Shown here: piece after piece, positions 2,919-59,778 of the stretch | How positions within the stretch are numbered: the first letter of the stretch is position 1 | How the letters are laid out: every line of letters begins with the position of its first letter | Notes under the pieces: generated by a model | The model's input: only the letters and a program-made list of their open reading frames with translations | Database searches by the model: none | Told to the model about the DNA's origin: nothing | Source: an uncultured virus (IMG/VR IMGVR_UViG_3300034683_000137) | Lineage: Duplodnaviria > Heunggongvirae > Uroviricota > Caudoviricetes | Direction: 5' to 3' (one strand) | Virus record (IMG/VR): IMGVR_UViG_3300034683_000137 | Length of the DNA stretch: 64,000 nt | Translations under genes and position numbers: made by a program

Positions 2919-3848
2919 CTATACTATTCCTGAAAATATATCATCTATAGTGTTCTGATCATAATTGATATATTGATTATTATAATTCTCCACTACCATA
3001 TCTTCATATACCTTAGCTTTGTTAGCTTTCATTATTTCTAGAAGCCACATATTGATATCATCAACATCTTTAGGTATATCTAATTGAAAAACACCTTTAG
3101 AGAAAAAGTTATTACCATCTAATCGTTCTGCTATTTTACCAGCAAGGATTGACTGGGAATACATATTTATTTTTATTTTGCCATCTTGGGAATAATCCCA
3201 TAATGCTATTAAGATTACTTCTGTCTCATATTTGGTCAATATCTTATCCACAATCATATCATTGATATTATAATGTGACCTGCATATAACAATTCCATCA
3301 TCATATGTTAAAAAATTATTACAATACTGTTCTACTATTAACTCTTTCTCTTTTATACTACGTGATACAAGATGTTGCTCATGTTTATTTAATGTCAAAT
3401 CTGGATTGATTATAAATCTATAAATGAACTGTTCATTGCCTAAAACATTATATAGCTCTTTAATATCTTGACTTGTTTCATTATATATAAATCCACAATT
3501 ATCAGCCATATTACAAATTGGAAGTACTACCTTTCTAATGTTATCATCTATTTTATCAGTTTTAGATAGATATTCGTATAACAATCTAGTATTAGATTTA
3601 TCACCATATATGAAATTACTAAACCCATCAAAAAACTCTTTACTTGTTTTAGTATTATTAATAATAACTACATTATCTGGAATTGGAACACTTATATGAG
3701 AATATCCTATTAGTATATCAGGCTCAGCTGATACAAGGAATATATTTATATTTCTTGGAGAAACTGTATAGAAATCCATCTTACTTGTAATATGATAGTA
3801 TATAACCTGAGAGAAAGCACAATCAACACCATAATTAGTTATCAACAT
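2919..3848 (-). CDS. degenerate DHH/DHHA1 phosphoesterase-like protein
   Basis: layout resembles phage DHH proteins, but motif I reads NYGVDC and the DHH triad is absent. Confidence 0.4.
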   Translation of the reverse strand: MLITNYGVDCAFSQVIYYHITSKMDFYTVSPRNINIFLVSAEPDILIGYSHISVPIPDNVVIINNTKTSKEFFDGFSNFIYGDKSNTRLLYEYLSKTDKIDDNIRKVVLPICNMADNCGFIYNETSQDIKELYNVLGNEQFIYRFIINPDLTLNKHEQHLVSRSIKEKELIVEQYCNNFLTYDDGIVICRSHYNINDMIVDKILTKYETEVILIALWDYSQDGKIKINMYSQSILAGKIAERLDGNNFFSKGVFQLDIPKDVDDINMWLLEIMKANKAKVYEDMVVENYNNQYINYDQNTIDDIFSGIV

Positions 3849-4663: not shown

Positions 4664-6217
4664 TCAATCCTCAAAGAATACTCCCTTTTCATACTGCTGC
4701 TTTATGATATCCTTGAAAAAGGAAAACTTATCTTCAGGTTGCATCTCATTCTCTATCCATTTCTGGAAACTCAAATCAGCTTTAGCCATCTTTGGAGCAG
4801 CAGATTCTGATGGAGCATATTCTAAATTTATAGGAACATTATCTCTCTTAATAAGTGCATTAACTTTCTTGCACATAAAATCACCTATTTTAGTAGCAGC
4901 AACAATACCATCTTCAGAAAGTAATCCCTTTGAATAACCCATATTCATAAGAGATTCATGTCCACCACAAATAGATATAACATTAAAATAAGAATCTAGA
5001 GATTGATTATAAAAGAAAAAGTAAGGATATAGTTCTTTATGCGCTTCTATAAAACGTCTCTTAGCCTGAGCTAATTCTTCAGCTTTCTCCATAAGATCAT
5101 CTAAAATAGTGAAATATATATCCCAATCACCTTGAGCTATATATCCAATTCTATTTAGATTAATATTAAATACACCAACACCACCCACACCAGAGCCACT
5201 TCTAAATATACCACTATTTATCTTTAATATATCCTCTAAAGAGACTTGAAATCTACAACAAAATGATTTCTGCATCTCCATATTTCTAGCTTTAATATAC
5301 TTGTTTAATTGTTTATACTTGCTATCTTCAAGAAATGGTTTGGTTCTATAATTTTCAAAATATACTCCGCCCCATTTGTCCATTTCTTCAAGCAGCATAT
5401 TAAATACTTCATTATCAAAATCAAAATTATCAGTTATATTGACTGTAATCAAAGGAAAACTGAATGGTTTTCCACTATTATCTCCTTTTGCAAAAGTCTC
5501 TATAAATGCTTTATTCACTTCATCATAATATTTTGCAGGTACATCTGAATACTTATAATCTCTATTAAGTTTAATCTCTGTATTTCCTGAACGTATAACA
5601 GTATTTTTAATTAAATGGTTTCCACCAAATACAATAAATTCATCCTTTAAAGCAGCATCTGGTCCTCCAAATGCCATTGTGATATTAGAAAAGGAACTAT
5701 TACCAGCTCTAAAAGGAACATTAATTTCAAATATAAAATGCTGCCATGCATTAATTAGATCTTGATAATCAACATTTCTGTTTAGTAACTCTCTTTCAAC
5801 AAACAGGTAAGCTGCTACTACTGTTGTAATATCATTTATAGCACAAGCACCATGTATTTCTTGAGAAATTAATGCAATAAAATTACTGCACTGACCTAAA
5901 AGACTATGTACATGCTTGGGAGGTGCTGTCTTTAATCCATTTACAGCTGTGGAATTAAGTCCTTTCATAGCTATATCTTCAGCAGAATATCCTGAACAAT
6001 ATGGACCTAATATGCTCAAATTATGTATATATAGCCATCCTTCTTCATGCAATTTATTTGCATATGATGGGTATACCTTTTCAAACCAATATTCTTTACT
6101 TGCTTCACCATATAATGTTGAATTAAGTGCAGGTAAAGAATAAACCAAATTACTATTATGCCTGGAAATGTCATCCCTATTAAGATATTTGTCAACTATT
6201 TCAGTATACTTTGACAT
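4664..6217 (-). CDS. nrdD: anaerobic (class III) ribonucleotide reductase, N-terminal fragment
   Basis: LYIHNLSILGPYC, SFPLITVN, SFCCRF finger-loop Cys, GVGVFNINLNRI, LEYAPSESAA; lacks the Zn ribbon and glycyl-radical C-terminus. Confidence 0.92.
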   Translation of the reverse strand: MSKYTEIVDKYLNRDDISRHNSNLVYSLPALNSTLYGEASKEYWFEKVYPSYANKLHEEGWLYIHNLSILGPYCSGYSAEDIAMKGLNSTAVNGLKTAPPKHVHSLLGQCSNFIALISQEIHGACAINDITTVVAAYLFVERELLNRNVDYQDLINAWQHFIFEINVPFRAGNSSFSNITMAFGGPDAALKDEFIVFGGNHLIKNTVIRSGNTEIKLNRDYKYSDVPAKYYDEVNKAFIETFAKGDNSGKPFSFPLITVNITDNFDFDNEVFNMLLEEMDKWGGVYFENYRTKPFLEDSKYKQLNKYIKARNMEMQKSFCCRFQVSLEDILKINSGIFRSGSGVGGVGVFNINLNRIGYIAQGDWDIYFTILDDLMEKAEELAQAKRRFIEAHKELYPYFFFYNQSLDSYFNVISICGGHESLMNMGYSKGLLSEDGIVAATKIGDFMCKKVNALIKRDNVPINLEYAPSESAAPKMAKADLSFQKWIENEMQPEDKFSFFKDIIKQQYEKGVFFED

Positions 6218-7344: not shown

Positions 7345-8301
7345 TTATAACTTATTTCTGTCTACCCAATCAACACGTCTAGCATCTTGCCAATAATTTT
7401 CATCACCATTTATCATATTATTCTCTATGCGTATATGTCCTGATATGATTGGTCTTACATATCCAATTATTCTGGCATATATCATCATATGATCAGCGTC
7501 TTTGCAATTAGGACATACATAATGTTCTCCTACAAACTTAGAATGACAGCTATTACATACACTCAATACTGGTGACAATGTAATATAATTAATTGGCATA
7601 TCGAATAACTTATCAATTATATCCTTTTTTAATTTTTCAGACACTTTAGCTCCAAGAAAGACATGTTCTATAGAGTTTCCACACCAAACAGGGATACCAC
7701 ATTCTCTTTTAACATACAAAACATGATTAGGAACTTCAACACAATATACTTTTCCTTTATATGGTACTCGTTCTATACTCTGTACTTTTAAAGACGCATG
7801 CTCTGTTTCTGCAGTTGGAATAAATATATGTTCCCCTTTTTGAAACATTTCTTCTACCATTGATGCTTGCATAATTCTATATTTTCCATTTTTATCTATT
7901 ATTACCATATTATGATCTTTTGTAACCATTATATCCAGTACAGTACTTTTAAAATGAATTAATTCTTCATCAATATCGAAATCAAATTTCTTTATAGCAT
8001 GTTGTAACTGAATCCTATTACTCTCAATATTAAAAGTGTAAAAACGATCTTCATCAATATCTACATCTTTGAAATACTTCCATCCATTATCTGTTCTGAC
8101 TTTTGTTTTGTCATCATAACAACCACCACTACTGAAAGGTTGTGTATATGCTGATATCTCACTTCTATATATCAAATCAGCATCAGTTGGTGGTTGTAAA
8201 CCAGAAGTCATATATACATTATTACTCTCAATATCACCCTGTACAAAACATTTTTTTACTTTCTTCTGTCCATCCATTTTATATAATACCTCCTCGTGCA
8301 T
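7345..8301 (-). CDS. nrdD: class III RNR C-terminal fragment (Zn ribbon and glycyl-radical loop) with a mini-intein
   Basis: YMTSG...QPFSSGG|intein|SIEHVFLG, YITLSP, CNSC/CPNC, YARIIGYVRP. Confidence 0.9.
   Translation of the reverse strand: MHEEVLYKMDGQKKVKKCFVQGDIESNNVYMTSGLQPPTDADLIYRSEISAYTQPFSSGGCYDDKTKVRTDNGWKYFKDVDIDEDRFYTFNIESNRIQLQHAIKKFDFDIDEELIHFKSTVLDIMVTKDHNMVIIDKNGKYRIMQASMVEEMFQKGEHIFIPTAETEHASLKVQSIERVPYKGKVYCVEVPNHVLYVKRECGIPVWCGNSIEHVFLGAKVSEKLKKDIIDKLFDMPINYITLSPVLSVCNSCHSKFVGEHYVCPNCKDADHMMIYARIIGYVRPIISGHIRIENNMINGDENYWQDARRVDWVDRNKL
7675..8121 (-). mobile_element. cis mini-intein (149 aa, no endonuclease) in the nrdD C-fragment
   Basis: block A CYDDKTKVRT, block B VTKDHNM, block F VYCVEVPNH, ends WCGN followed by Ser+1. 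Confidence 0.9.
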
Positions 8302-10221: not shown

Positions 10222-11535
10222 CTAAGCGTAAGCGAAAGTGGAGGATGAATCGGTTATCCAATTGTTGTTTCTACACGCCAATCGAATTTTTTCTGTGCTA
10301 ATTTGCTTATATTTAGATGTTGTTTGTAAATAATTGCCTTGTATATCTTGCACATATACCCAATTACCAGCGAATCCCGATATAAAACCAATCTTATTTA
10401 TTTCTGGTATATACACTTTATCCCGCAAGCACCACTTCTTTTCTTTTACAATTATTTCTTTTGTATTTTTGCTATTTCTTTTTGCTTTCCTATTAGGTTC
10501 TTTTCTACCTTTACGCGGTATTTCTTCATGCAAATTACGTTTCTTTTTGCGTACTTGCTTTATATAATATATATTATCGCTATACTTCATTGGTTTTATA
10601 TTTGCAATTACTACTGCATCGTTTATATGCGACTTTTCTATATTCCACTCTTTACGCTTTCTGCGTGTGTATAGTCCAAAAGTATACTGCGTTGGTATTA
10701 TTTCTTGTAGTTTAGGCACAAGATAATCTTTAAGAACATTCATAAATGCCGTTTCCTGAAATTGCTTTATCTTAGGTAGATTTTTACCTGTAAATTCTTT
10801 GTATTCCATGTTGCCTTTTGCTTTATTATGTGCTTCACAACTACATACCAAATTGCTTGGATTATTGCTACCACCCTTGCTTCTTGGTATAATATGGTCT
10901 ACTTCAAGAATATCATTGCAAGGTATGTCTGGTCTTAATTTTGCATAATGACAAGTAAAATTATCTCTTATTTTTACATATTCTTTTACGCTATCATATC
11001 CATACATTTCTCCCTGTTGATATTCTATACCATTAATATCTGGATTAACTAATGCCTGTGTATCAAATTGCCCTATTTCTACTCTTATTCTGCTTATAGG
11101 TAAAATTTTTACAATATCATTTACTAGTCTTATATGAGCATTAATTCTTGATTGTATACTCGGTGGTAACCATCCTTCTTTCCTTTTTCTATTTAGAAAT
11201 CTAGGTTTTCTATATCTTGTTTTTCTATTACGTCTTGCTTGCCGAAGCCGTTTCCTTGTTTCAATATTTTCTTTTATATCTTGCCTTAATTCTGCTTCGG
11301 CACGATAAAGCACATTACCTTGTTCAGTTATAACTGCTATTCCTATATGTTTACTTCCTGCGTCAATTCCTAATATACAATCTTGCACTTGGTTTTCACA
11401 CTCAAATAATAATTGAATTGTAAATGGTTCATATTTTACTATTTTAGCCTTCTTGTTTTTCAGCAATTTTCTTGCCTTAGCAGGCTTGCAAGGCATTAAA
11501 GGTTTCCCATCAACTGAAATAACATATACTAACAT
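10222..11535 (-). CDS. iscB: RNA-guided endonuclease IscB
   Basis: GKPLMP, RuvC-I GIDAGSK, Arg-rich RRNRKTRYRKPRFLNR, RuvC-II VEIGQFD, HNH EVDHIIPRSKGGSN...HN, RuvC-III SHINDA. Confidence 0.95.
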   Translation of the reverse strand: MLVYVISVDGKPLMPCKPAKARKLLKNKKAKIVKYEPFTIQLLFECENQVQDCILGIDAGSKHIGIAVITEQGNVLYRAEAELRQDIKENIETRKRLRQARRNRKTRYRKPRFLNRKRKEGWLPPSIQSRINAHIRLVNDIVKILPISRIRVEIGQFDTQALVNPDINGIEYQQGEMYGYDSVKEYVKIRDNFTCHYAKLRPDIPCNDILEVDHIIPRSKGGSNNPSNLVCSCEAHNKAKGNMEYKEFTGKNLPKIKQFQETAFMNVLKDYLVPKLQEIIPTQYTFGLYTRRKRKEWNIEKSHINDAVVIANIKPMKYSDNIYYIKQVRKKKRNLHEEIPRKGRKEPNRKAKRNSKNTKEIIVKEKKWCLRDKVYIPEINKIGFISGFAGNWVYVQDIQGNYLQTTSKYKQISTEKIRLACRNNNWITDSSSTFAYA

Positions 11536-11544
11536 TTGGCTTTA

Positions 11545-11779
11545 AGCCCTCCTTTCGGAGTTATTTGCCCATCCCCAATGTTGGAATAACTTTGCAGTAT
11601 AACTGCCAATTGTGGTTGACCGTTCCTACCCATCAGAACTTTTACAGAGCCACCTTAGAGCCTGAAACTTGGGCATCATTTCAGGGTAAGATAATTATTC
11701 CAACGTAGTCAGTTAAGACTTAGGGTAGTCAACTAAGGCTTTTCCAAGCCTCCGCTTCTATAAGCGGTGGGTAGTTGAC
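11545..11779 (-). ncRNA. IscB omega-RNA (HEARO-like) scaffold
   Basis: ~235-nt structured leader of iscB: GTCAACTACCCACCGC...GTTGACTACCCTAAG...CTACGTT...AACATTGGGGATGGG. Confidence 0.85.
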
Positions 11780-16970: not shown

Positions 16971-17870
16971 TTATATTTCTAAACTAATATATGGATCAAC
17001 TTTATCATATTGTCCAAAATCTTTATCAATTTTATTTCGCACTACTTTAACGTTATTATAATTTAATCCAGTTAAATAATTGTTATCATCTTTATCGTTG
17101 TCAGCTACAATTATTATATTGGGATAATTACATAGTGTCAAAGACTTTATTAATTTATAGGTATTAGAAAACGTACTAGTAAGTGCAGCTGCAAAGATAG
17201 CATCATCAGGGATATCAATATATCTATGTATGTAAACATTGAGTATATCAAATATACCTTCTGCTATTACAACAGTTTTATGCTGTCTGAATTTAAATAT
17301 ATCAATTGTATTATTAACAATAAAAGTATCATTCCCATCAGCAAGGGAATAATTATAATATCTAAATAACTTATCATCATTCAATACTCTAAATATCATT
17401 TTCTTTTTGTAATAAGTTAAAAAACAAATACCCTTCTCAAAAACAATATCTTTTAACTTATTTTGAACTATATCAACATAAGTTTTATATGAGAGTATGT
17501 TATATTCTGGAAGAATAGTATCTACTCCAAGTCTTTGCTTAATGTATTCGTATATAAACTCTTCATATTGTTCATCATTTATATTAAAGGATAAATTTGA
17601 AGTTGATGTAATACTTCTATCTGATGATACATTGTCATAATAGTCTTCAATATTAAGATCATCTTGTAAACCTATCTCTCTTATTAAATATGATAAATGG
17701 CCACCAGTACCACAGCGTACACATCTAAAGACAGGTTTATCTATAGCAATATATAGATGACCATGTGTGGTATCTTTTGAATCTCCACAAAATGGACATC
17801 TAAATATATGGTGCCTTGTATTTGATTTAATATAAGTTAATTTAGTTTTTAATATATCTTTTAATTGCAT
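16971..17870 (-). CDS. DNA primase (gp61-like)
   Basis: Zn finger CPFCGDS...CVRCG; TOPRIM AEGIFD and ADND. Confidence 0.88.
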   Translation of the reverse strand: MQLKDILKTKLTYIKSNTRHHIFRCPFCGDSKDTTHGHLYIAIDKPVFRCVRCGTGGHLSYLIREIGLQDDLNIEDYYDNVSSDRSITSTSNLSFNINDEQYEEFIYEYIKQRLGVDTILPEYNILSYKTYVDIVQNKLKDIVFEKGICFLTYYKKKMIFRVLNDDKLFRYYNYSLADGNDTFIVNNTIDIFKFRQHKTVVIAEGIFDILNVYIHRYIDIPDDAIFAAALTSTFSNTYKLIKSLTLCNYPNIIIVADNDKDDNNYLTGLNYNNVKVVRNKIDKDFGQYDKVDPYISLEI

Positions 17871-35145: not shown

Positions 35146-38100
35146 ATGACAAAAGAATTATCACCACTAACGAAATATATTTATTATATACAACATAAGA
35201 CTGATTCATTGGATGATACAGTCAAGCAACTTAATATATCTACAATATTAAATATATCTGAAGATGATGTGTTATCTTGTATATACTTGGATCAATTGAT
35301 TAATACTAATCCTATACTTGCACGAAATGTACCTTTTGATAAATTATCTGAATTTCACAGATATATTAACAGATCCAAACAAATACAATTTATGTCAAAC
35401 AAATCAAAGAAAGTTACTGATGAAATAAATCAATTAAAACAACAACATCCTTATTTATCAGAAGAAGATATCAAAACATATCTTACATTGACAAAAAATA
35501 ATACTGAAAGTCTTAATCAAGAATCTGTTGTTTCTTCCAATAATGTTGAAGATACTATAGATACTATTTCTCCATTGAAAGATGAGATAGAAAAGAGACT
35601 CACTACGCAATGTGCATTATGCAAATCTAATAAAGATGATATACAAAGGACTATCTTTGATTTTACAACAAATGATATATCCCAAGTTAAAGTACTATTT
35701 GTTGGAGAAGCACCTGCTGTCAATGAAATTAAAGAAGGTAAACCCTTTGTTGGACGTGCAGGACAGTTATTAAGACATACATTAGATAATACTGGTTTTA
35801 ATGATATTCATTGGGGTGTTATGAATGTTTGTTTATGTTTTCATCAACCATCAAACCCACCAATGAAAGATGAGATAGCGTATTGTTTTGACAATCTAGA
35901 GTTAATTATTTCTAAATTACCAGTAGATGCTGTTATAGTTCCACTTGGTAATTATCCTTGTAGTAGGTTTGGTATAACAGATAAGATAACAGATGCTATG
36001 ACGAAGATATACAAATATAATGAGCATCTGGTATTACCATGTATTCATCCATCTGCAATATGCAGAAATATGTCCAGATATGATATTTTTGCTAATAGGT
36101 TAAAACAAATAAGATATGCTATAGAATCAAAAGATAATGTTCAACCACATATGTCTTATACTACTGATGATGTGAGGAAGTTGTTTCCTATTCCCAATAA
36201 AACTGAACCAGAAACAGTTAATAACAATAAGAATGATACTGATACTACAAGTAATACATCTGATAATATAATGTTAGTTAATACAGTATACAATTATCTT
36301 AAATCTGAAGTTAATTATGTATTAAGAAGAGGACAAGATAAAATAATTCATACTACAGATGATAAATATGCTCTATATTATGGTAAATCAAATAATACTG
36401 TTGAATATAAGGATAAATTAAAACTCAAAGTTATACATTTTAAAGATAGAGTAAATGTAATAAACGATTTGAAGAGCAAAGGATTTAATGTCTTTGGAGA
36501 TATGAATCTATCAGTATATAAGAATATTCAGTTTAGAAATACTTACACAGAGACTGAACAACCATTAAGAATTGCTGCTATAGATATAGAATTATTTCTC
36601 AATGGTAATATGATGCTTCTCGATGACATGATGGCAGCTGCAAAGAGATATGTTATATCATTGATAACACTATATGATAACTATACTGATACCTATTATA
36701 CGTTTATAAACAACTCATTCAATTTGAACATTGATAAGCAAGAAATAATCAAACATCTAGAATATAAAGATGAATGTAATATTGAAATATTTGTATATAA
36801 TGATGAAAGACAGATGCTGAATGGTTTTATTCAAAAATTTGATGAAATAGATCCTGATCTTGTAACAGGATGGAACTCATCAGCATTTGACTGGCCATTT
36901 ATTATTAATAGATCACAATATCTTGGTATAGAATGTAAAAACAAATATGGTCGTATTTTTATTAATGAGCGAACTAATAAACCATATATTCCATATGTTG
37001 TGGAATGTGATTATTTAACATTGTATAAGAAAAGAACATTCAGTAAAAGAGAATCTTATACACTTGGTTTTATTGCTGAATTTGAACTTGGTATAAAGAA
37101 ACTGTCTCTTGACAAACGATTTGATGATATGTGGTTATCAGACCCCAATAGATTCATTGCTTATAATATTAATGATGTTCATCTTGTAAGAAAGTTGGAT
37201 AATAAGCTCAAATATATTGATATTCAATTTAACATTATAAGAGCAACCAATATCAGTTGGGATGAATCATTCAAGACACTTCCAATTATAGATGGTATTC
37301 TATTTACAACATTAGATAAGCAAAATAAGACAGTTATATGTAAAAAATATGAATATGATAAAGATAATGATCAGGAAACAGAAAAGCTTAAAGGTGCTTT
37401 TGTAAGAAAACCATTAAAAGGATTATATAACTGGTTAGCTGATTTGGATCTTTCTTCTCTGTATCCATATATCATTGCACGATATAATATTTCTATTGAT
37501 ACCTATGTTGGTAAGGTAGATGAATATATTGCTCGTGAATATATCTATAATAGAGATGAATTATTATCTCAACCAGATAGACTTATTAATTATGAAGATA
37601 AGAATTTAAATGTTAAACAGATTACAGTGCAGAAATTACATGATACCATAACTAAACACAATTTGATAATAACAATAATGGGTACAATGTATGTCAATCA
37701 TAATACAAAATTATCAGTTTATTATGAAATTATAGATATGCTTATTAGAGAACGCAAACGATATAAAAATGAAATGTTTAAAGCAATTGAGAATAATAAT
37801 CAGATGTTAGCAGAAAGATATAATAATTGGCAATTTACTTATAAGGTTCTTACTAACTCACTATATGGTGGAATAGCTAATCAATATTTTAGACTGTTTC
37901 ATTTTCCATCTGCAGAGACTATAACTGCATCTGGAAGAGAAATAGTAACAATGGGTGCATATCATATTCATCAGTATTTAAATAAAATGAGAGATGCTCA
38001 TAAGATGGATATTGAACCATATGAATTTGATACAAGATTTCTTGATGCTGATGTACTGGAGAATATAGTATATGGTGATTCTGTTGATGAAAATACAAAA

Positions 38101-38451
38101 ATAAATACTGAACAATATCCAGAAGGTATACCAATCAAAGATCTATTTGAAAGGCATAAGGAATACAAACTTATGAATTATATAGGAAGAGAATATATCT
38201 TTGCAAATGACAAAGTACTTACATATGAAGATTCTGATGCTGTATATAGATCAATAAATAATATATCACGACATAAAGTTAATAAACCAATGTATAGAAT
38301 TAGAACTGAAAGTGGAAAAGAATTAATTGTAACTGAAGACCATTCTATTATGATTGAGAGAGATGGACAATTAATGCAAGTTAAACCAAATGAAATATTG
38401 GATTCTGATCTTGTATTGACAAACCAAAAGTCAACTACCCACCGCCTATAG
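35146..38451 (+). CDS. polB: family-4 uracil-DNA glycosylase fused to PolB N-terminal part, ending in an N-intein
   Basis: UDG: CALC, LFVGEAP, PFVGRAG, IHPSA; exo: AIDIE, TGWNSSAFDW, YNINDV; pol: DLDLSSLYP, KVLTNSLYG, YGD then intein. Confidence 0.95.
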   Translation: MTKELSPLTKYIYYIQHKTDSLDDTVKQLNISTILNISEDDVLSCIYLDQLINTNPILARNVPFDKLSEFHRYINRSKQIQFMSNKSKKVTDEINQLKQQHPYLSEEDIKTYLTLTKNNTESLNQESVVSSNNVEDTIDTISPLKDEIEKRLTTQCALCKSNKDDIQRTIFDFTTNDISQVKVLFVGEAPAVNEIKEGKPFVGRAGQLLRHTLDNTGFNDIHWGVMNVCLCFHQPSNPPMKDEIAYCFDNLELIISKLPVDAVIVPLGNYPCSRFGITDKITDAMTKIYKYNEHLVLPCIHPSAICRNMSRYDIFANRLKQIRYAIESKDNVQPHMSYTTDDVRKLFPIPNKTEPETVNNNKNDTDTTSNTSDNIMLVNTVYNYLKSEVNYVLRRGQDKIIHTTDDKYALYYGKSNNTVEYKDKLKLKVIHFKDRVNVINDLKSKGFNVFGDMNLSVYKNIQFRNTYTETEQPLRIAAIDIELFLNGNMMLLDDMMAAAKRYVISLITLYDNYTDTYYTFINNSFNLNIDKQEIIKHLEYKDECNIEIFVYNDERQMLNGFIQKFDEIDPDLVTGWNSSAFDWPFIINRSQYLGIECKNKYGRIFINERTNKPYIPYVVECDYLTLYKKRTFSKRESYTLGFIAEFELGIKKLSLDKRFDDMWLSDPNRFIAYNINDVHLVRKLDNKLKYIDIQFNIIRATNISWDESFKTLPIIDGILFTTLDKQNKTVICKKYEYDKDNDQETEKLKGAFVRKPLKGLYNWLADLDLSSLYPYIIARYNISIDTYVGKVDEYIAREYIYNRDELLSQPDRLINYEDKNLNVKQITVQKLHDTITKHNLIITIMGTMYVNHNTKLSVYYEIIDMLIRERKRYKNEMFKAIENNNQMLAERYNNWQFTYKVLTNSLYGGIANQYFRLFHFPSAETITASGREIVTMGAYHIHQYLNKMRDAHKMDIEPYEFDTRFLDADVLENIVYGDSVDENTKINTEQYPEGIPIKDLFERHKEYKLMNYIGREYIFANDKVLTYEDSDAVYRSINNISRHKVNKPMYRIRTESGKELIVTEDHSIMIERDGQLMQVKPNEILDSDLVLTNQKSTTHRL
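38080..38448 (+). mobile_element. N-terminal half of a split intein (Ser1, 123 aa)
   Basis: SVDENTKI block A directly after YGD; block B IVTEDHSIM; stop codon follows. Confidence 0.92.
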
Positions 38452-38480
38452 AGGTGAGTGTCTTCTTGCATAGTTTTAAG
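38430..38480 (-). mobile_element. 51-bp collapsed IS200/IS605-type element (fused left and right ends)
   Basis: GTCAACTACCCACCGCCTATAG matches the IscB element end at 21/22; continues GAGGTGAGTGTCTTCTTGC, the reverse complement of a tnpB-left-end-like GCAAGAAGAC...CCTC; followed by ATAAA. Confidence 0.75.
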
Positions 38481-38483
38481 ATA

Positions 38484-38526
38484 AAAGATATCAAGCGTGA
38501 TTCGTTTAATCACGCTTGATATCTTT
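38484..38526. terminator. bidirectional terminator-like hairpin between convergent genes
   Basis: 19-bp stem AAAGATATCAAGCGTGATT-cgttt-AATCACGCTTGATATCTTT. Confidence 0.8.
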
Positions 38527-38532
38527 ATCTAT

Positions 38533-39033
38533 TCATTTAAATAAGGAGCGAATATTGTTTTCTATATCTTCTAGACATTGAAACTGTTTAGGTGTTTTAA
38601 TGTCTAGAATTAGTGATATATCTTGATTACTAATGCACATCATGACGTTATCCTTTTTCACAGAGTTGACACCAACTTCAAATGTCACTCCATTGTCATC
38701 CAAAATCATATTTCTATATGAGCCTGGCTCAATTACATCAAGCTGTGTTAAGATATCTAACACAGCAAATATATTTGCAGTAAAATAGAGATTTATTTTA
38801 TTAATATTAAAGCAAACATCACCATATTCATCTAACACTACATCAATGTTAGATGTACCACTTTCATTGATGGTGATAGTATTATTACCATTATTTTCAG
38901 CTATTTTATAATCTACATTTGGAATTGTTCCTAAATGTAGATTATTCTCATATGCTAATCCTGTATTTATACAGAAGTAGCTTATAATAAAAGATAAAAC
39001 AAATAATTTTGTTAATTTTTTCATTATTGTCAT
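38533..39033 (-). CDS. exported hypothetical protein
   Basis: signal-peptide-like MKKLTKLFVLSFIISYFCINTGLA; SD AAGGAG. Confidence 0.65.
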   Translation of the reverse strand: MTIMKKLTKLFVLSFIISYFCINTGLAYENNLHLGTIPNVDYKIAENNGNNTITINESGTSNIDVVLDEYGDVCFNINKINLYFTANIFAVLDILTQLDVIEPGSYRNMILDDNGVTFEVGVNSVKKDNVMMCISNQDISLILDIKTPKQFQCLEDIENNIRSLFK

Positions 39034-39057
39034 CTCCTTATTCTTAATTATGTATTT

Positions 39058-39093
39058 ATGGAAATGACCTGAGTATTCTCAGATCATTTCCAT
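39058..39093 (-). terminator. stem-loop after the DUF1874-like gene
   Basis: ATGGAAATGA-c-CTGAG-tatt-CTCAG-a-TCATTTCCAT. Confidence 0.65.
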
Positions 39094-39099
39094 TTTCTA

Positions 39100-39435
39100 T
39101 TACTCTAATCTGATGATCTCTCTTACAGAAAGATCATCAATGTTAACTTCTTGATGAGGAGTTGTGAACCCATCATCCTTTCTAGTACTTCTTCCTTGCT
39201 TGATGGCAAAACATACAACAGCTTCGCCAACATCCAATCCTTGGAACAGCTTGGAGGAAGCTTCAACTGCTCCAAGCTGTTCTACAATTACCTTCGTTGC
39301 AGGATGCCCTATATAATGAGGCACCCCAGTGATATCAGGTAAGGTCTCAAGTGTCCTTACCTGATAAATTCCATCTTTTGGCAATACTGTAGTTGGCAGT
39401 ACTGCTTTATACATCTTATTACAAAGTGTGCTCAT
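39100..39435 (-). CDS. DUF1874 (STIV B116/YddF) family protein, AcrIII-1-like ring nuclease candidate
   Basis: ~111 aa; TTVLPKDGIYQV, HYIGHPATKVIVEQLG (family IGHxxT motif), LDVGEAVVCFAIKQGR..RKDDG. Confidence 0.65.
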   Translation of the reverse strand: MSTLCNKMYKAVLPTTVLPKDGIYQVRTLETLPDITGVPHYIGHPATKVIVEQLGAVEASSKLFQGLDVGEAVVCFAIKQGRSTRKDDGFTTPHQEVNIDDLSVREIIRLE

Positions 39436-39640
39436 AATTCTCAATCTCCTTGAATCCTATTATTGGATCACCATAAGCAACGCATTGTTTATGGTGATCA
39501 TCTACAACTTCTACACAAGCATGTTTACTAAACCCCATTGCTTTTTGAATAGCAATAGCTTTGCTTAAAACAACAAATTCTTTCCTTTTACTTCTTCCAT
39601 ACCTATCACTAAACAAGGACTCAACAACAACTTTAAACAT
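39419..39640 (-). CDS. small hypothetical protein
   Basis: 73 aa, SD AGGAGG, overlaps the start of the DUF1874-like gene. Confidence 0.7.
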   Translation of the reverse strand: MFKVVVESLFSDRYGRSKRKEFVVLSKAIAIQKAMGFSKHACVEVVDDHHKQCVAYGDPIIGFKEIENYEHTL

Positions 39641-39710
39641 GCTAATACCTCCTATAAGAAAAAATATTTGAAAGAAAAAGCTCGTAACACATAGCTACAA
39701 ACTTCTTCTT

Positions 39711-39730
39711 TCATTATAATAATATATATG
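39711..39730 (-). promoter_or_regulatory. conserved 20-bp promoter-like motif (copy 2)
   Basis: CATATATATTATTATAATGA upstream of the 39640 ORF. Confidence 0.65.
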
Positions 39731-39924
39731 TAAATTTTTATATCATTAAAGAGATTATTAATATTAATATGCTTGATAAGTGAGAGATATTATGCTATAC
39801 TTAATCCACAAAGACAGTTAAAAAATATTTGGAGATATATATCTCCTGATGTGATATATTATTTAGGGAGCCTGGTGGTTCTGCTGTGGCAATGCTATAT
39901 GATCGATATGGATTTTACTCCATA

Positions 39925-39944
39925 TCATTATAATAATATATATG
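39925..39944 (-). promoter_or_regulatory. conserved 20-bp promoter-like motif (copy 3)
   Basis: identical 20-mer. Confidence 0.6.
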
Positions 39945-39968
39945 GATATTTTGAATAGGAGGTACTAG

Positions 39969-40097
39969 ATGATGCCTATAGTAAAGGAAAGAATAGCATC
40001 TGTTGAGAAAATTGAAAATAATGTACCAGAGTATGTATATGATATTGAAGTTGATAATAACCATATGTTTTTTGCTAATGACATTTTAGTACATAAT
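39969..40097 (+). mobile_element. C-terminal half of the split intein (43 aa, His-Asn|Thr+1)
   Basis: block F YVYDIEV, block G ILVHN/T. Confidence 0.92.
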
Positions 40098-40958
40098 ACT
40101 GACTCAATGTTTCTCTTTATTGAACCAGTGCTCAAGTCATTATATGGTGATAAATATGATTCAATAAGTGAAGATGAAAAGACAGAAACCACTTTAAAGA
40201 TTGTTAGAAATTGTTCTGAATATATTAATAAATATATCATTCCTGAAATGCTTAAAAGGCATAATGCTGGTGATTCTGAGCTTGCCACTAAATATAACTT
40301 TACATTTAAGGAAGAATTAGTTATTAAGAGAGCTATGTTCTTAGATGCAAAGAAAAAATATGCATTATGGATCATCAACAAAGAAGGAAAGAAAATAGAC
40401 GATCTAAGTATCACAGGTATGGAGGTGGTTAGAGCAGATTTCCCAAGATTTACCAAACAGATGTTACAAGATGTTATAGATAAGATATTAAGAGAAGAAT
40501 ACAGTTCTTTTCAAATTTTAAATCTGATAGACAAATATATAGACGAATATAAAACCAGACTTATGGCTGGTGATTATACTTTAGGAGTACCAGGTGGATG
40601 GGGTGCTAGAGAATATAAAGTATTGACAAAGACTATAAGAGGCATGAAAATATATAATGTCATATATGGTCCTACCTTTTATGAAGGAGATAGAGGATAT
40701 ACATTTACTATAAGTAAAGTAGATGGTAGCAAGATCAAAGATTATGATAAGAAATTAAAGCAAATGCGTGTTGAGGGTTTGCTAATTAAAAACGATCAGA
40801 TTGATGTTATTACAGTACCTGAAGGAGTTAATTTAGACACCTCTATTTTTTATCCAGATATAGATGCCATGCTTGATACTGCAATATATAAGAGACTAGA
40901 ACCAATTATAGATATATTTGGAATTAATATTGATCATATGGATAATTTAACTTGGTAA
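39969..40958 (+). CDS. polB: C-intein plus PolB C-terminal part
   Basis: VYDIEVDNNHMFFANDILVHN|TDSMF, AKKKYA, ITGMEVVRAD; SD AGGAGG. Confidence 0.95.
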   Translation: MMPIVKERIASVEKIENNVPEYVYDIEVDNNHMFFANDILVHNTDSMFLFIEPVLKSLYGDKYDSISEDEKTETTLKIVRNCSEYINKYIIPEMLKRHNAGDSELATKYNFTFKEELVIKRAMFLDAKKKYALWIINKEGKKIDDLSITGMEVVRADFPRFTKQMLQDVIDKILREEYSSFQILNLIDKYIDEYKTRLMAGDYTLGVPGGWGAREYKVLTKTIRGMKIYNVIYGPTFYEGDRGYTFTISKVDGSKIKDYDKKLKQMRVEGLLIKNDQIDVITVPEGVNLDTSIFYPDIDAMLDTAIYKRLEPIIDIFGINIDHMDNLTW

Positions 40959-58536: not shown

Positions 58537-59778
58537 GTGAAAGTAAGTTTTAAATACTATCCTAAATTAAATCAATTACAACAAAATATTATAGAAGAAT
58601 TATCATATCATACAACAAAGCTATATAACATAGCAAACTATGAAAATAGAGAAAATGGTTTTAAAAACTATTATGAAACTGAAAAGTTATATAAGCAAAA
58701 TTATCATACACAATTTCTACATTCGCACACTTATCAATGGTGTTTGAAGATGTTAGAACAGGATTGGAAATCTTATTTTGCTTCAATAAAAGATTATAAG
58801 AAAAATCCAAATAAATATTTAGGATTGCCTAAACCACCAAAGTTTAAGAATACAAATAATAAAAAGAACGAGATAATATTTACAACAGCAGGGATAAGGT
58901 ATAAAAATGGTATATTAAAGCTATCATTATCAAAGGCAATACAAGATAAGTTTCAGGTTCAAAGTTTAAATTTTGACATGAAGAATGTCAAAATACCTGT
59001 GAATCTATCAAGGATTAATCAAATTAAATTACAATGGAATAATTCTTCTAAAAGATGGTATTTACTAATAATATGGGAAAATGAAATTATAAATAAAGTA
59101 ACTGGTGATAATGTAATGGCAATAGATTTAGGATTAGATAATCTTGCAACTTGTGTATTTAAAGATAATCCACAATGCATTATATTTAGTGGCAAACATA
59201 TTAAAAGTAAAAATGCTTATTATAATAAAGAAATAGCAAGGTTGACTTCTATTGTTATGAAACAATGTAAAAATAGTAAACATTTTAGAAGAACAAAGCA
59301 AATAATTAAACTACAAACTAAAAGAAATAACTATATTAAAGACCAAATACACAAGATTAGTAAAAATATAGTAGAATTAGCATTAACAATGGATTGCAAC
59401 ACAATAGTAATAGGTGATTTTTCAGGAATAAAGCAAGAAAATCACGCTAAAAGTTTTGTCCAAATACCACAGCAAGAATTAGTAAAAAAGATAAAGTATA
59501 AAGCAGAATTAGTAGGATTAAAAGTAATAATGGTTAATGAATCATATACCAGCGGATGTAGTGCAATAGATTTAGAAGAAATAAATAAAGCTAATTACAA
59601 TAAATCAAGAAGAATAACAAGAGGTCTTTTCAAAACAAATAATGGTATGTTAATTAACGCTGATGTAAATGGTGCATTGAATATATTAAGAAAATATATA
59701 AAAGGTATTCCCAAAGCAATAGAGATTGCGAGGGATAATGGGCGATTGGACAGTCCATTGAGAATAAGGGGAGTGTAA
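58537..59778 (+). CDS. tnpB: RNA-guided endonuclease TnpB
   Basis: AIDLGLDNLA, VNESYTS, NADVNGALNI. Confidence 0.93.
   Translation: MKVSFKYYPKLNQLQQNIIEELSYHTTKLYNIANYENRENGFKNYYETEKLYKQNYHTQFLHSHTYQWCLKMLEQDWKSYFASIKDYKKNPNKYLGLPKPPKFKNTNNKKNEIIFTTAGIRYKNGILKLSLSKAIQDKFQVQSLNFDMKNVKIPVNLSRINQIKLQWNNSSKRWYLLIIWENEIINKVTGDNVMAIDLGLDNLATCVFKDNPQCIIFSGKHIKSKNAYYNKEIARLTSIVMKQCKNSKHFRRTKQIIKLQTKRNNYIKDQIHKISKNIVELALTMDCNTIVIGDFSGIKQENHAKSFVQIPQQELVKKIKYKAELVGLKVIMVNESYTSGCSAIDLEEINKANYNKSRRITRGLFKTNNGMLINADVNGALNILRKYIKGIPKAIEIARDNGRLDSPLRIRGV

Follow-up and report, generated by a model that had tools for sequence, protein, structure and literature searches.

The stretch of viral DNA considered here (the window) corresponds to the opening 64 kb of a linear record, 75,253 bp long, from an uncultured member of the Caudoviricetes (IMG/VR IMGVR_UViG_3300034683_000137). 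The record is about 27% complete, and a Pfam scan finds genes for a T4-like major capsid protein, portal and prohead protease within the window. The DNA polymerase PolB of this phage is encoded by two separate open reading frames (ORFs) on the plus strand. The first, polB-N (35146-38451), is a single ORF of 1101 aa with its stop codon at 38449-38451. Its N-extein (35146..38079) combines a family-4 uracil-DNA glycosylase with the PolB 3′-5′ exonuclease and with motifs A and B of the polymerase; it stops at the YGD of motif C. Directly downstream lies the N-terminal half of an intein (38080..38451; 123 aa), so that the end of the polypeptide reads ...NIVYGD/SVDENT...TEDHS...STTHRL (the slash marks the splice junction), with the codon for Ser1 at 38080. 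The second ORF, polB-C (39969-40958; 329 aa), begins 1,517 nt past polB-N and is preceded by a Shine-Dalgarno (SD) sequence, AGGAGG, at 39957-39962. It opens with a 43-aa intein C-half (39969..40097) ending in ILVHN/TDSMF, which would shorten to 42 aa if an alternative ATG at 39972 were used, and continues from Thr+1 as the C-extein (40098..40958), the remainder of the PolB palm and the thumb. The original prediction for this locus, made from the sequence, had described this split layout, the SD of polB-C, halves of 123 and 43 aa and the absence of cysteine from both, all of which are borne out by the ORFs and their translations.

The two halves together display the hallmarks of a class 1 split mini-intein. 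On the N side, Ser1 follows immediately upon the N-extein and the half ends in a stop codon; on the C side, the half has an independent start codon in a second ORF and runs to a penultimate His42 and terminal Asn43 before Thr+1. The N-half also contains the NX motif (Arg64-His65) and block B (Thr85-x-x-His88, here TEDH), and the C-half contains the block F (C2) Asp25. An Arg or Lys preceding the NX His is described as a signature of Ser1 inteins (PMC10189870), and Arg64 occupies exactly this position. Profile searches concur: NCBIfam TIGR01445 recognizes the N-half (51.8 bits; cut-off 24.5) and TIGR01443 the C-half (35 bits; cut-off 15.6), while Pfam PF14890 scores 34.8 and 31.8 for the halves, just short of its whole-intein cut-off of 35.8. 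In the PDB, the best match to the N-half is 9HTH (E 1.2e-12), the Aes123 intein (PMC11923092). The charges of the halves are complementary, with a net +5 over residues 61-80 of the N-half and a net −5 for the C-half. Removal of the intein would unite YGD with TDS to give YGDTDS, the motif present in the intein-free homologues P0041 and P0042 and in agreement with PMC549080; the predicted Ser1, Thr+1 and restored junction are upheld. The lack of cysteine in either half (a count of 0) is by itself unremarkable because the chance of finding none across 159-166 residues, given the protein's own Cys frequency, is about 0.21. The feature that matters is the pairing of Ser1 with Thr+1.

The same break recurs throughout a clade of related phages. 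Among the homologues of polB-N, every one of the top 18 of 57 (identity 36-96%) terminates with an N-half placed at YGD/S, as do five further homologues from another phage group, and two more end at DTD/S; lower-ranked homologues mostly have contiguous inteins or no intein. Correspondingly, the top 24 of 71 polB-C homologues all begin with a C-half ending in HN/TDS. The NX His is present in 18/18 clade N-halves, the block-B His in 15/18 and the C2 Asp in 24/24 of the top C-halves, and cysteine is absent from 8/18 N-halves and 19/24 C-halves. At the level of gene arrangement, 35 loci were examined, namely 12 viral loci (the best of 51) and the complete set of 23 from metagenomes. Of these, 17 clade loci have both halves as separate plus-strand ORFs; several of these records are duplicates, leaving about eight distinct arrangements. 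Two loci from another lineage are split, with gaps of 79-184 nt; one further locus has a contiguous intein, and in two others no intein was matched. In the 10 loci compared at this point, the ATG of the C-half lies behind an SD-like sequence. The split is long established and has become fixed within this group of jumbo phages.

The ratios of nonsynonymous to synonymous substitution (dN/dS) for the N-half and C-half, respectively, are 0.33 and 0.13 against locus L065, 0.47 and 0.13 against L013, and 0.26 and 0.34 against L063, with synonymous divergence partly saturated; in L012, both halves are identical to those of the window. In addition, two relatives with complete genomes, G002 (275 kb) and G003 (284 kb), contain no intact PolB, only the two PolB halves, and no intein pieces beyond those two. 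The record that includes the window has no further split-intein piece either. Trans-splicing would thus very likely be required for an active polymerase, since 2/2 complete relatives have no other PolB to rely on.

One could suppose instead that the intein halves act solely as an assembly clamp and that the two PolB chains work unspliced. Split gp43 of T4-like phages and NrdA of Aeh1, assembled non-covalently, are described (PMC2677866), and in the window itself the anaerobic ribonucleotide reductase NrdD occurs in two pieces with no split intein. Here, however, the break falls inside the six-residue motif C, at the Asp/Thr boundary, and neither a single precursor nor the unspliced complex should polymerize because the motif C Asp is separated from the Thr. 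Moreover, the nucleophiles and the catalytic His, Asn and Asp are all conserved, which would be superfluous for a mere clamp. We regard this explanation as very improbable.

Still less probable is removal of the gap at the RNA level, by an intron or ribosomal bypass, to yield a contiguous cis-splicing intein; the original prediction had named intron removal as one of the outcomes that would overturn it. The gap is indeed very rich in hairpins, but these sit within antisense cargo genes, away from the junctions, and Rfam finds no match in the gap. The gap is also variable in size and content among clade relatives (about 1.4-7.8 kb, with genes on both strands), and the C-half has the SD-like sequence noted above. 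No joint between the N-half and C-half was found in Logan contigs of four RNA runs, taken from 3 studies, and of four DNA runs; for RNA, such contigs are blind to strand, level and rare forms and may include DNA. One RNA contig covers the N-half and continues to the native stop, and a second leads out of the gap over the start of the C-half.

The stop codon of the N-half in the window is overlapped by the scar of a collapsed IscB (IS200/IS605) element, a 51-nt plus-strand segment (38430..38480) in which a 10-nt core common to both ends joins the left end to the right. This scar takes the place of 29 nt found in the native allele and extends the protein by STTHRL, whereas the alleles in L012, L063 and L065 are scar-free and stop after TNQK. 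The predicted length of 123 aa thus holds for the window, while the native N-half is 117 aa. In L062, a full IscB/HEARO element has its left end at the identical position. A recent, inactivating break in the gene (through this insertion, say) or a fault of assembly is scarcely credible despite the scar at the stop: L012, L063 and L065 show the identical split with a native stop, which excludes an artefact, homologues as distant as 36% identity share the split, and dN/dS stays under 1. The IscB insertion as the origin of the split was likewise rejected; it is younger than the split, since the scar-free alleles are split too.

Some observations weigh against a functional split intein. Twelve of the 35 loci stop 0-3.4 kb past the N-half and are uninformative on the C-half; in L062 there is no C-half within 6 kb past the N-half, where the IscB gene is followed by unrelated genes, an arrangement that could reflect either rearrangement or chimeric assembly. 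In P0011, P0012 and P0013, Glu replaces the block-B His (VTEDES) with the NX His intact, and this His is absolutely conserved among the Ser1 inteins surveyed in PMC10189870. The record covers only 27% or so of the genome, and the RNA evidence has the limits of its contigs. Even so, the motifs, the clade-wide split, the dN/dS values below 1, the want of an intact PolB in 2/2 complete relatives and the failure to find a joint in the four RNA runs make a cysteine-independent split intein that needs trans-splicing the best reading, as had been proposed. We consider it highly probable, from sequence comparison, that the Ser1/Thr+1 intein is real, naturally split and very likely functional, and that the PolB precursors trans-splice to give YGDTDS.

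A plausible course of events can be outlined from class 1 intein chemistry and the papers on Aes123 and PolB16. PolB is encoded as two precursors, each bearing one half of the Ser1/Thr+1 mini-intein, and the basic patch of the N-half (residues 61-80) would capture the acidic C-half, in keeping with the charges of the halves in the capture model of PMC12707363. Ser1 would then form the oxyester, assisted by the NX His65 and block-B His88, and Thr+1 would receive the N-extein. Finally, cyclization of Asn43 would free the intein and rebuild YGDTDS; up to this point, a single precursor or an unspliced complex would not be expected to polymerize. The space between the halves has meanwhile turned into a variable cargo island, with the IscB scar as a later, incidental insertion.

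Comparison with known split inteins places the element among familiar forms, and it is no new kind of system or mechanism but a further example of a described arrangement. The intein of Nanoarchaeum equitans PolB (Neq Pol; NEQ068/NEQ528; allele pol-c) is like that of the phage in being naturally split, in residing in PolB at YGD/TDS, and in using Ser1 and Thr+1; the insertion at the Asp/Thr boundary of motif C identifies the window intein as a pol-c allele. The N. equitans split at this site is described in PMC549080, and like the phage halves the intein is cysteine-less (PMC10189870). It differs in being archaeal and in needing 50-70 °C, according to the same account (PMC10189870), and in having its halves at separate loci (PMC2677866), unlike the phage halves in one locus. 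It is not among the PDB matches of either half.

Closer in host are the cysteine-less phage PolB inteins Aes123 and Aes516 PolB1, CP21 PolB1, LCGC14 and GOM-OPS-1 PolB2, and PolB16 OarG, which share Ser1 and the NX His with the window intein and, PolB16 excepted, a typical split into about 115-120 and 39-46 aa. Aes123, CP21, LCGC14, GOM-OPS-1 and PolB16 are described at DTD/S with Ser+1, two residues downstream of the window site, so that the window intein does not belong to the Aes123-type PolB1/PolB2 allele; DTD/S is also described in PA5oct/MIJ3, PTm1 and Lak (PMC6892783). The original prediction had cited both N. equitans and T4-like phages as precedents for a split PolB intein at this site, and while the first is apt, the characterized T4-like phage inteins lie at DTD/S with Ser+1. 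The N-half is only 32% identical to those of Aes516 and CP21, but over the 21 residues at the end of the C-half 18 agree with Aes516, so that orthogonality is no more than a possibility. Nor is Thr+1 a unique property for a tool, since the CL intein splices with Thr+1 (PMC13014065).

Two further phages have inteins at the window site. Klebsiella jumbo phage KP13-7 (OP617745), already in GenBank, has a split PolB of the form YGD/S...HN/TDS; its N-half differs in having two cysteines (30% identity), and its gap contains one weak nuclease-like ORF (PF18741, below cut-off). The split intein in PolB of this phage (locus L010, 2802-7565) is annotated solely as hypothetical proteins. Salicola phage SCTP-2 has a contiguous PolB intein at the same site, which over the two phages reads YGD/S...[H/K]N/TDS. 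In a midpoint-rooted tree of 50 N-halves, drawn without the N. equitans sequence, without L084 and without L009, which is not a PolB site, all phage PolB inteins of both sites fall on one branch (support 100/99), and the DTD/S forms make up a supported sub-branch (98/90) that also includes two YGD/S sequences. A literature search found no paper on the split PolB of this phage group, with subscription journals mostly uncovered.

The arrangement also invites comparison with fractured genes, as described by Dassa et al. (2009; PMC2677866), whose halves likewise occupy one locus in original order and orientation and are reunited through a split intein. The window differs in that its gap has no free-standing homing endonuclease, the ORFs of the 1.5-kb gap giving no endonuclease match in Pfam, NCBIfam or PHROG, and holds three antisense cargo genes instead. 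It works as a fractured gene would once its endonuclease is lost, and would fit stage III of the Dassa model, on the way towards IV.

The three cargo genes are on the minus strand. The first (38533..39033; 166 aa) has no Pfam, NCBIfam or PHROG match and, by eye, a hydrophobic N-terminus; the third (39419..39640; 73 aa) has no family match either. Between the first and the converging polB-N is a perfect 19-bp hairpin (38484..38526), a likely terminator. The middle gene (39100..39414; 104 aa) is predicted to have the AcrIII-1/DUF1874 (ring nuclease) fold. Folded with a 56-sequence alignment, drawn from a family with 106 relatives among 50%-cluster representatives, its product reaches a pLDDT of 93.7 (33 from the single sequence), and the top 11 Foldseek matches are AcrIII-1/Crn2 structures (probability 0.95-1.0, TM 0.51-0.68), at E values of 0.005-0.03 (best 4.6e-3) that lie above 0.001, with a profile E of 0.034. 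AcrIII-1 is described as having a catalytic His47 and cA4-binding Thr50, Arg66 and Arg85 (bioRxiv 778746); the His of a GH motif and a Thr are invariant over the 56 sequences, and an equivalent of Arg66 is not evident in an alignment to AFV3-109. Pfam, the PHROG scan and single-sequence PDB and Atlas searches gave no match for this protein, and the corresponding slot of L013 is occupied by an unambiguous PF08960 gene (3176-3499, minus strand; E 6e-24). The gene probably represents a diverged AcrIII-1-fold family.

Upstream of polB-C is a non-coding control region (39711..39944) in which a 20-nt motif containing TATAAT occurs twice without mismatch, at 39711 and 39925 (a third copy is at 1534), together with a plus-strand sigma70-like site at 39773-39801. 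Promoter assignments are weak because the scan returns 13 such sites against 12.3 expected. A 61-codon ORF within this region is disrupted by frameshifting indels in L063 and probably does not represent a gene. A conserved block at about 39830-39905 is exact only in the two closest records and partial in L065, and other runs contain it in a different setting as well; its plus-strand fold is without significance (z −1.85).

Gap content varies even among close relatives. In strain contigs the AcrIII-like gene is precisely absent or its neighbour is swapped, and other relatives have genes for ThyX, SLT, QueT, TnpB/Cas12f-like and HNH proteins, the last in one scanned relative, L076. Over 38043-40310, L012 has intein halves identical to those of the window and diverged cargo, while L063 shows the opposite, a mosaic that suggests recombination between strains. 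In L019-L022, a repeated unit (17455-17781, with a repeating translation) stands beside the TnpB/Cas12f-like gene in the PolB gap and may be a CRISPR-like array.

The cargo genes are also packed with near-perfect hairpins, with eight in 1.1 kb compared to 0.17 in shuffled sequences and none across 6 kb of the neighbouring genes for polymerase and helicase; their folding z-score is −10.5. Relatives have 18 in 1.4 kb (L065), 12 in 2.4 kb (L013), 7 in 2.4 kb (L069) and 2 in 1.6 kb (L016). Hairpin-packed antisense coding regions lie at 38533-39640 and 500-1500 in the window, in the gap of L065, and at 2625-5063 in L013 and 13246-15636 in L069, and such cargo genes stand behind the common 20-nt TATAAT motif. 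Selection on the hairpins is unproven because four alleles of the AcrIII-like gene show no compensatory base pairs among 88 predicted pairs. One idea is that they form structured early mRNA; a literature search returned nothing relevant on structured early anti-CRISPR mRNAs or on a split intein combined with anti-CRISPR genes.

Several features elsewhere in the window merit mention. The uracil-DNA glycosylase is fused to the PolB N-terminus at residues 178-316 (35677-36093), and PF03167 is listed in 6/18 clade homologues of polB-N. NrdD is encoded by two minus-strand genes in swapped order (4664-6217 and 7345-8301), with the C-terminal piece placed upstream and containing a contiguous Cys1/Ser+1 mini-intein; the pieces have no split-intein halves to join them. 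G001 shows this whole arrangement too, and in G002 and G003 the break lies at other points. IscB/TnpB elements and scars occur at 38430-38480, 10222-11779 (minus strand) and 58537-59778 of the window, at 75127-75180 of the record, and in L012 (2499-3764) and L062 (3947-5580), with ATAAA directly after the IscB right ends; a HEARO RNA at 11560-11779 is the sole Rfam match. The nearest GTDB relative of the window IscB is from Fervidicola ferrireducens (70%), a weak hint at the host, and a DNA search of 401 genomes of its phylum gave four short matches (32-52 nt, 81-94%).

The value of the locus lies in a panel of candidate cysteine-less inteins and in the oddities near the split. The clade offers many uncharacterized pol-c-site candidates, among which any that aggregated little and showed no cross-talk would serve well for protein ligation, and P0011-P0013, with Glu for the block-B His, could distinguish which His activates Ser1. 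A bolder view, to which we assign only a small chance, is that the split is a kept design, an AND gate in which the glycosylase-exonuclease N-precursor and a separately promoted C-precursor time replication, that the gap is a permanent anti-defence landing pad with hairpin-packed transcripts, and that the clade would provide a set of Ser1/Thr+1 split inteins, Cys-free by nature and orthogonal to CLm and LCGC14, some of them natural variants able to splice with no block-B His. For the phages themselves, the arrangement means that an essential polymerase is fixed in split form across the group and that the break serves as a gene island.

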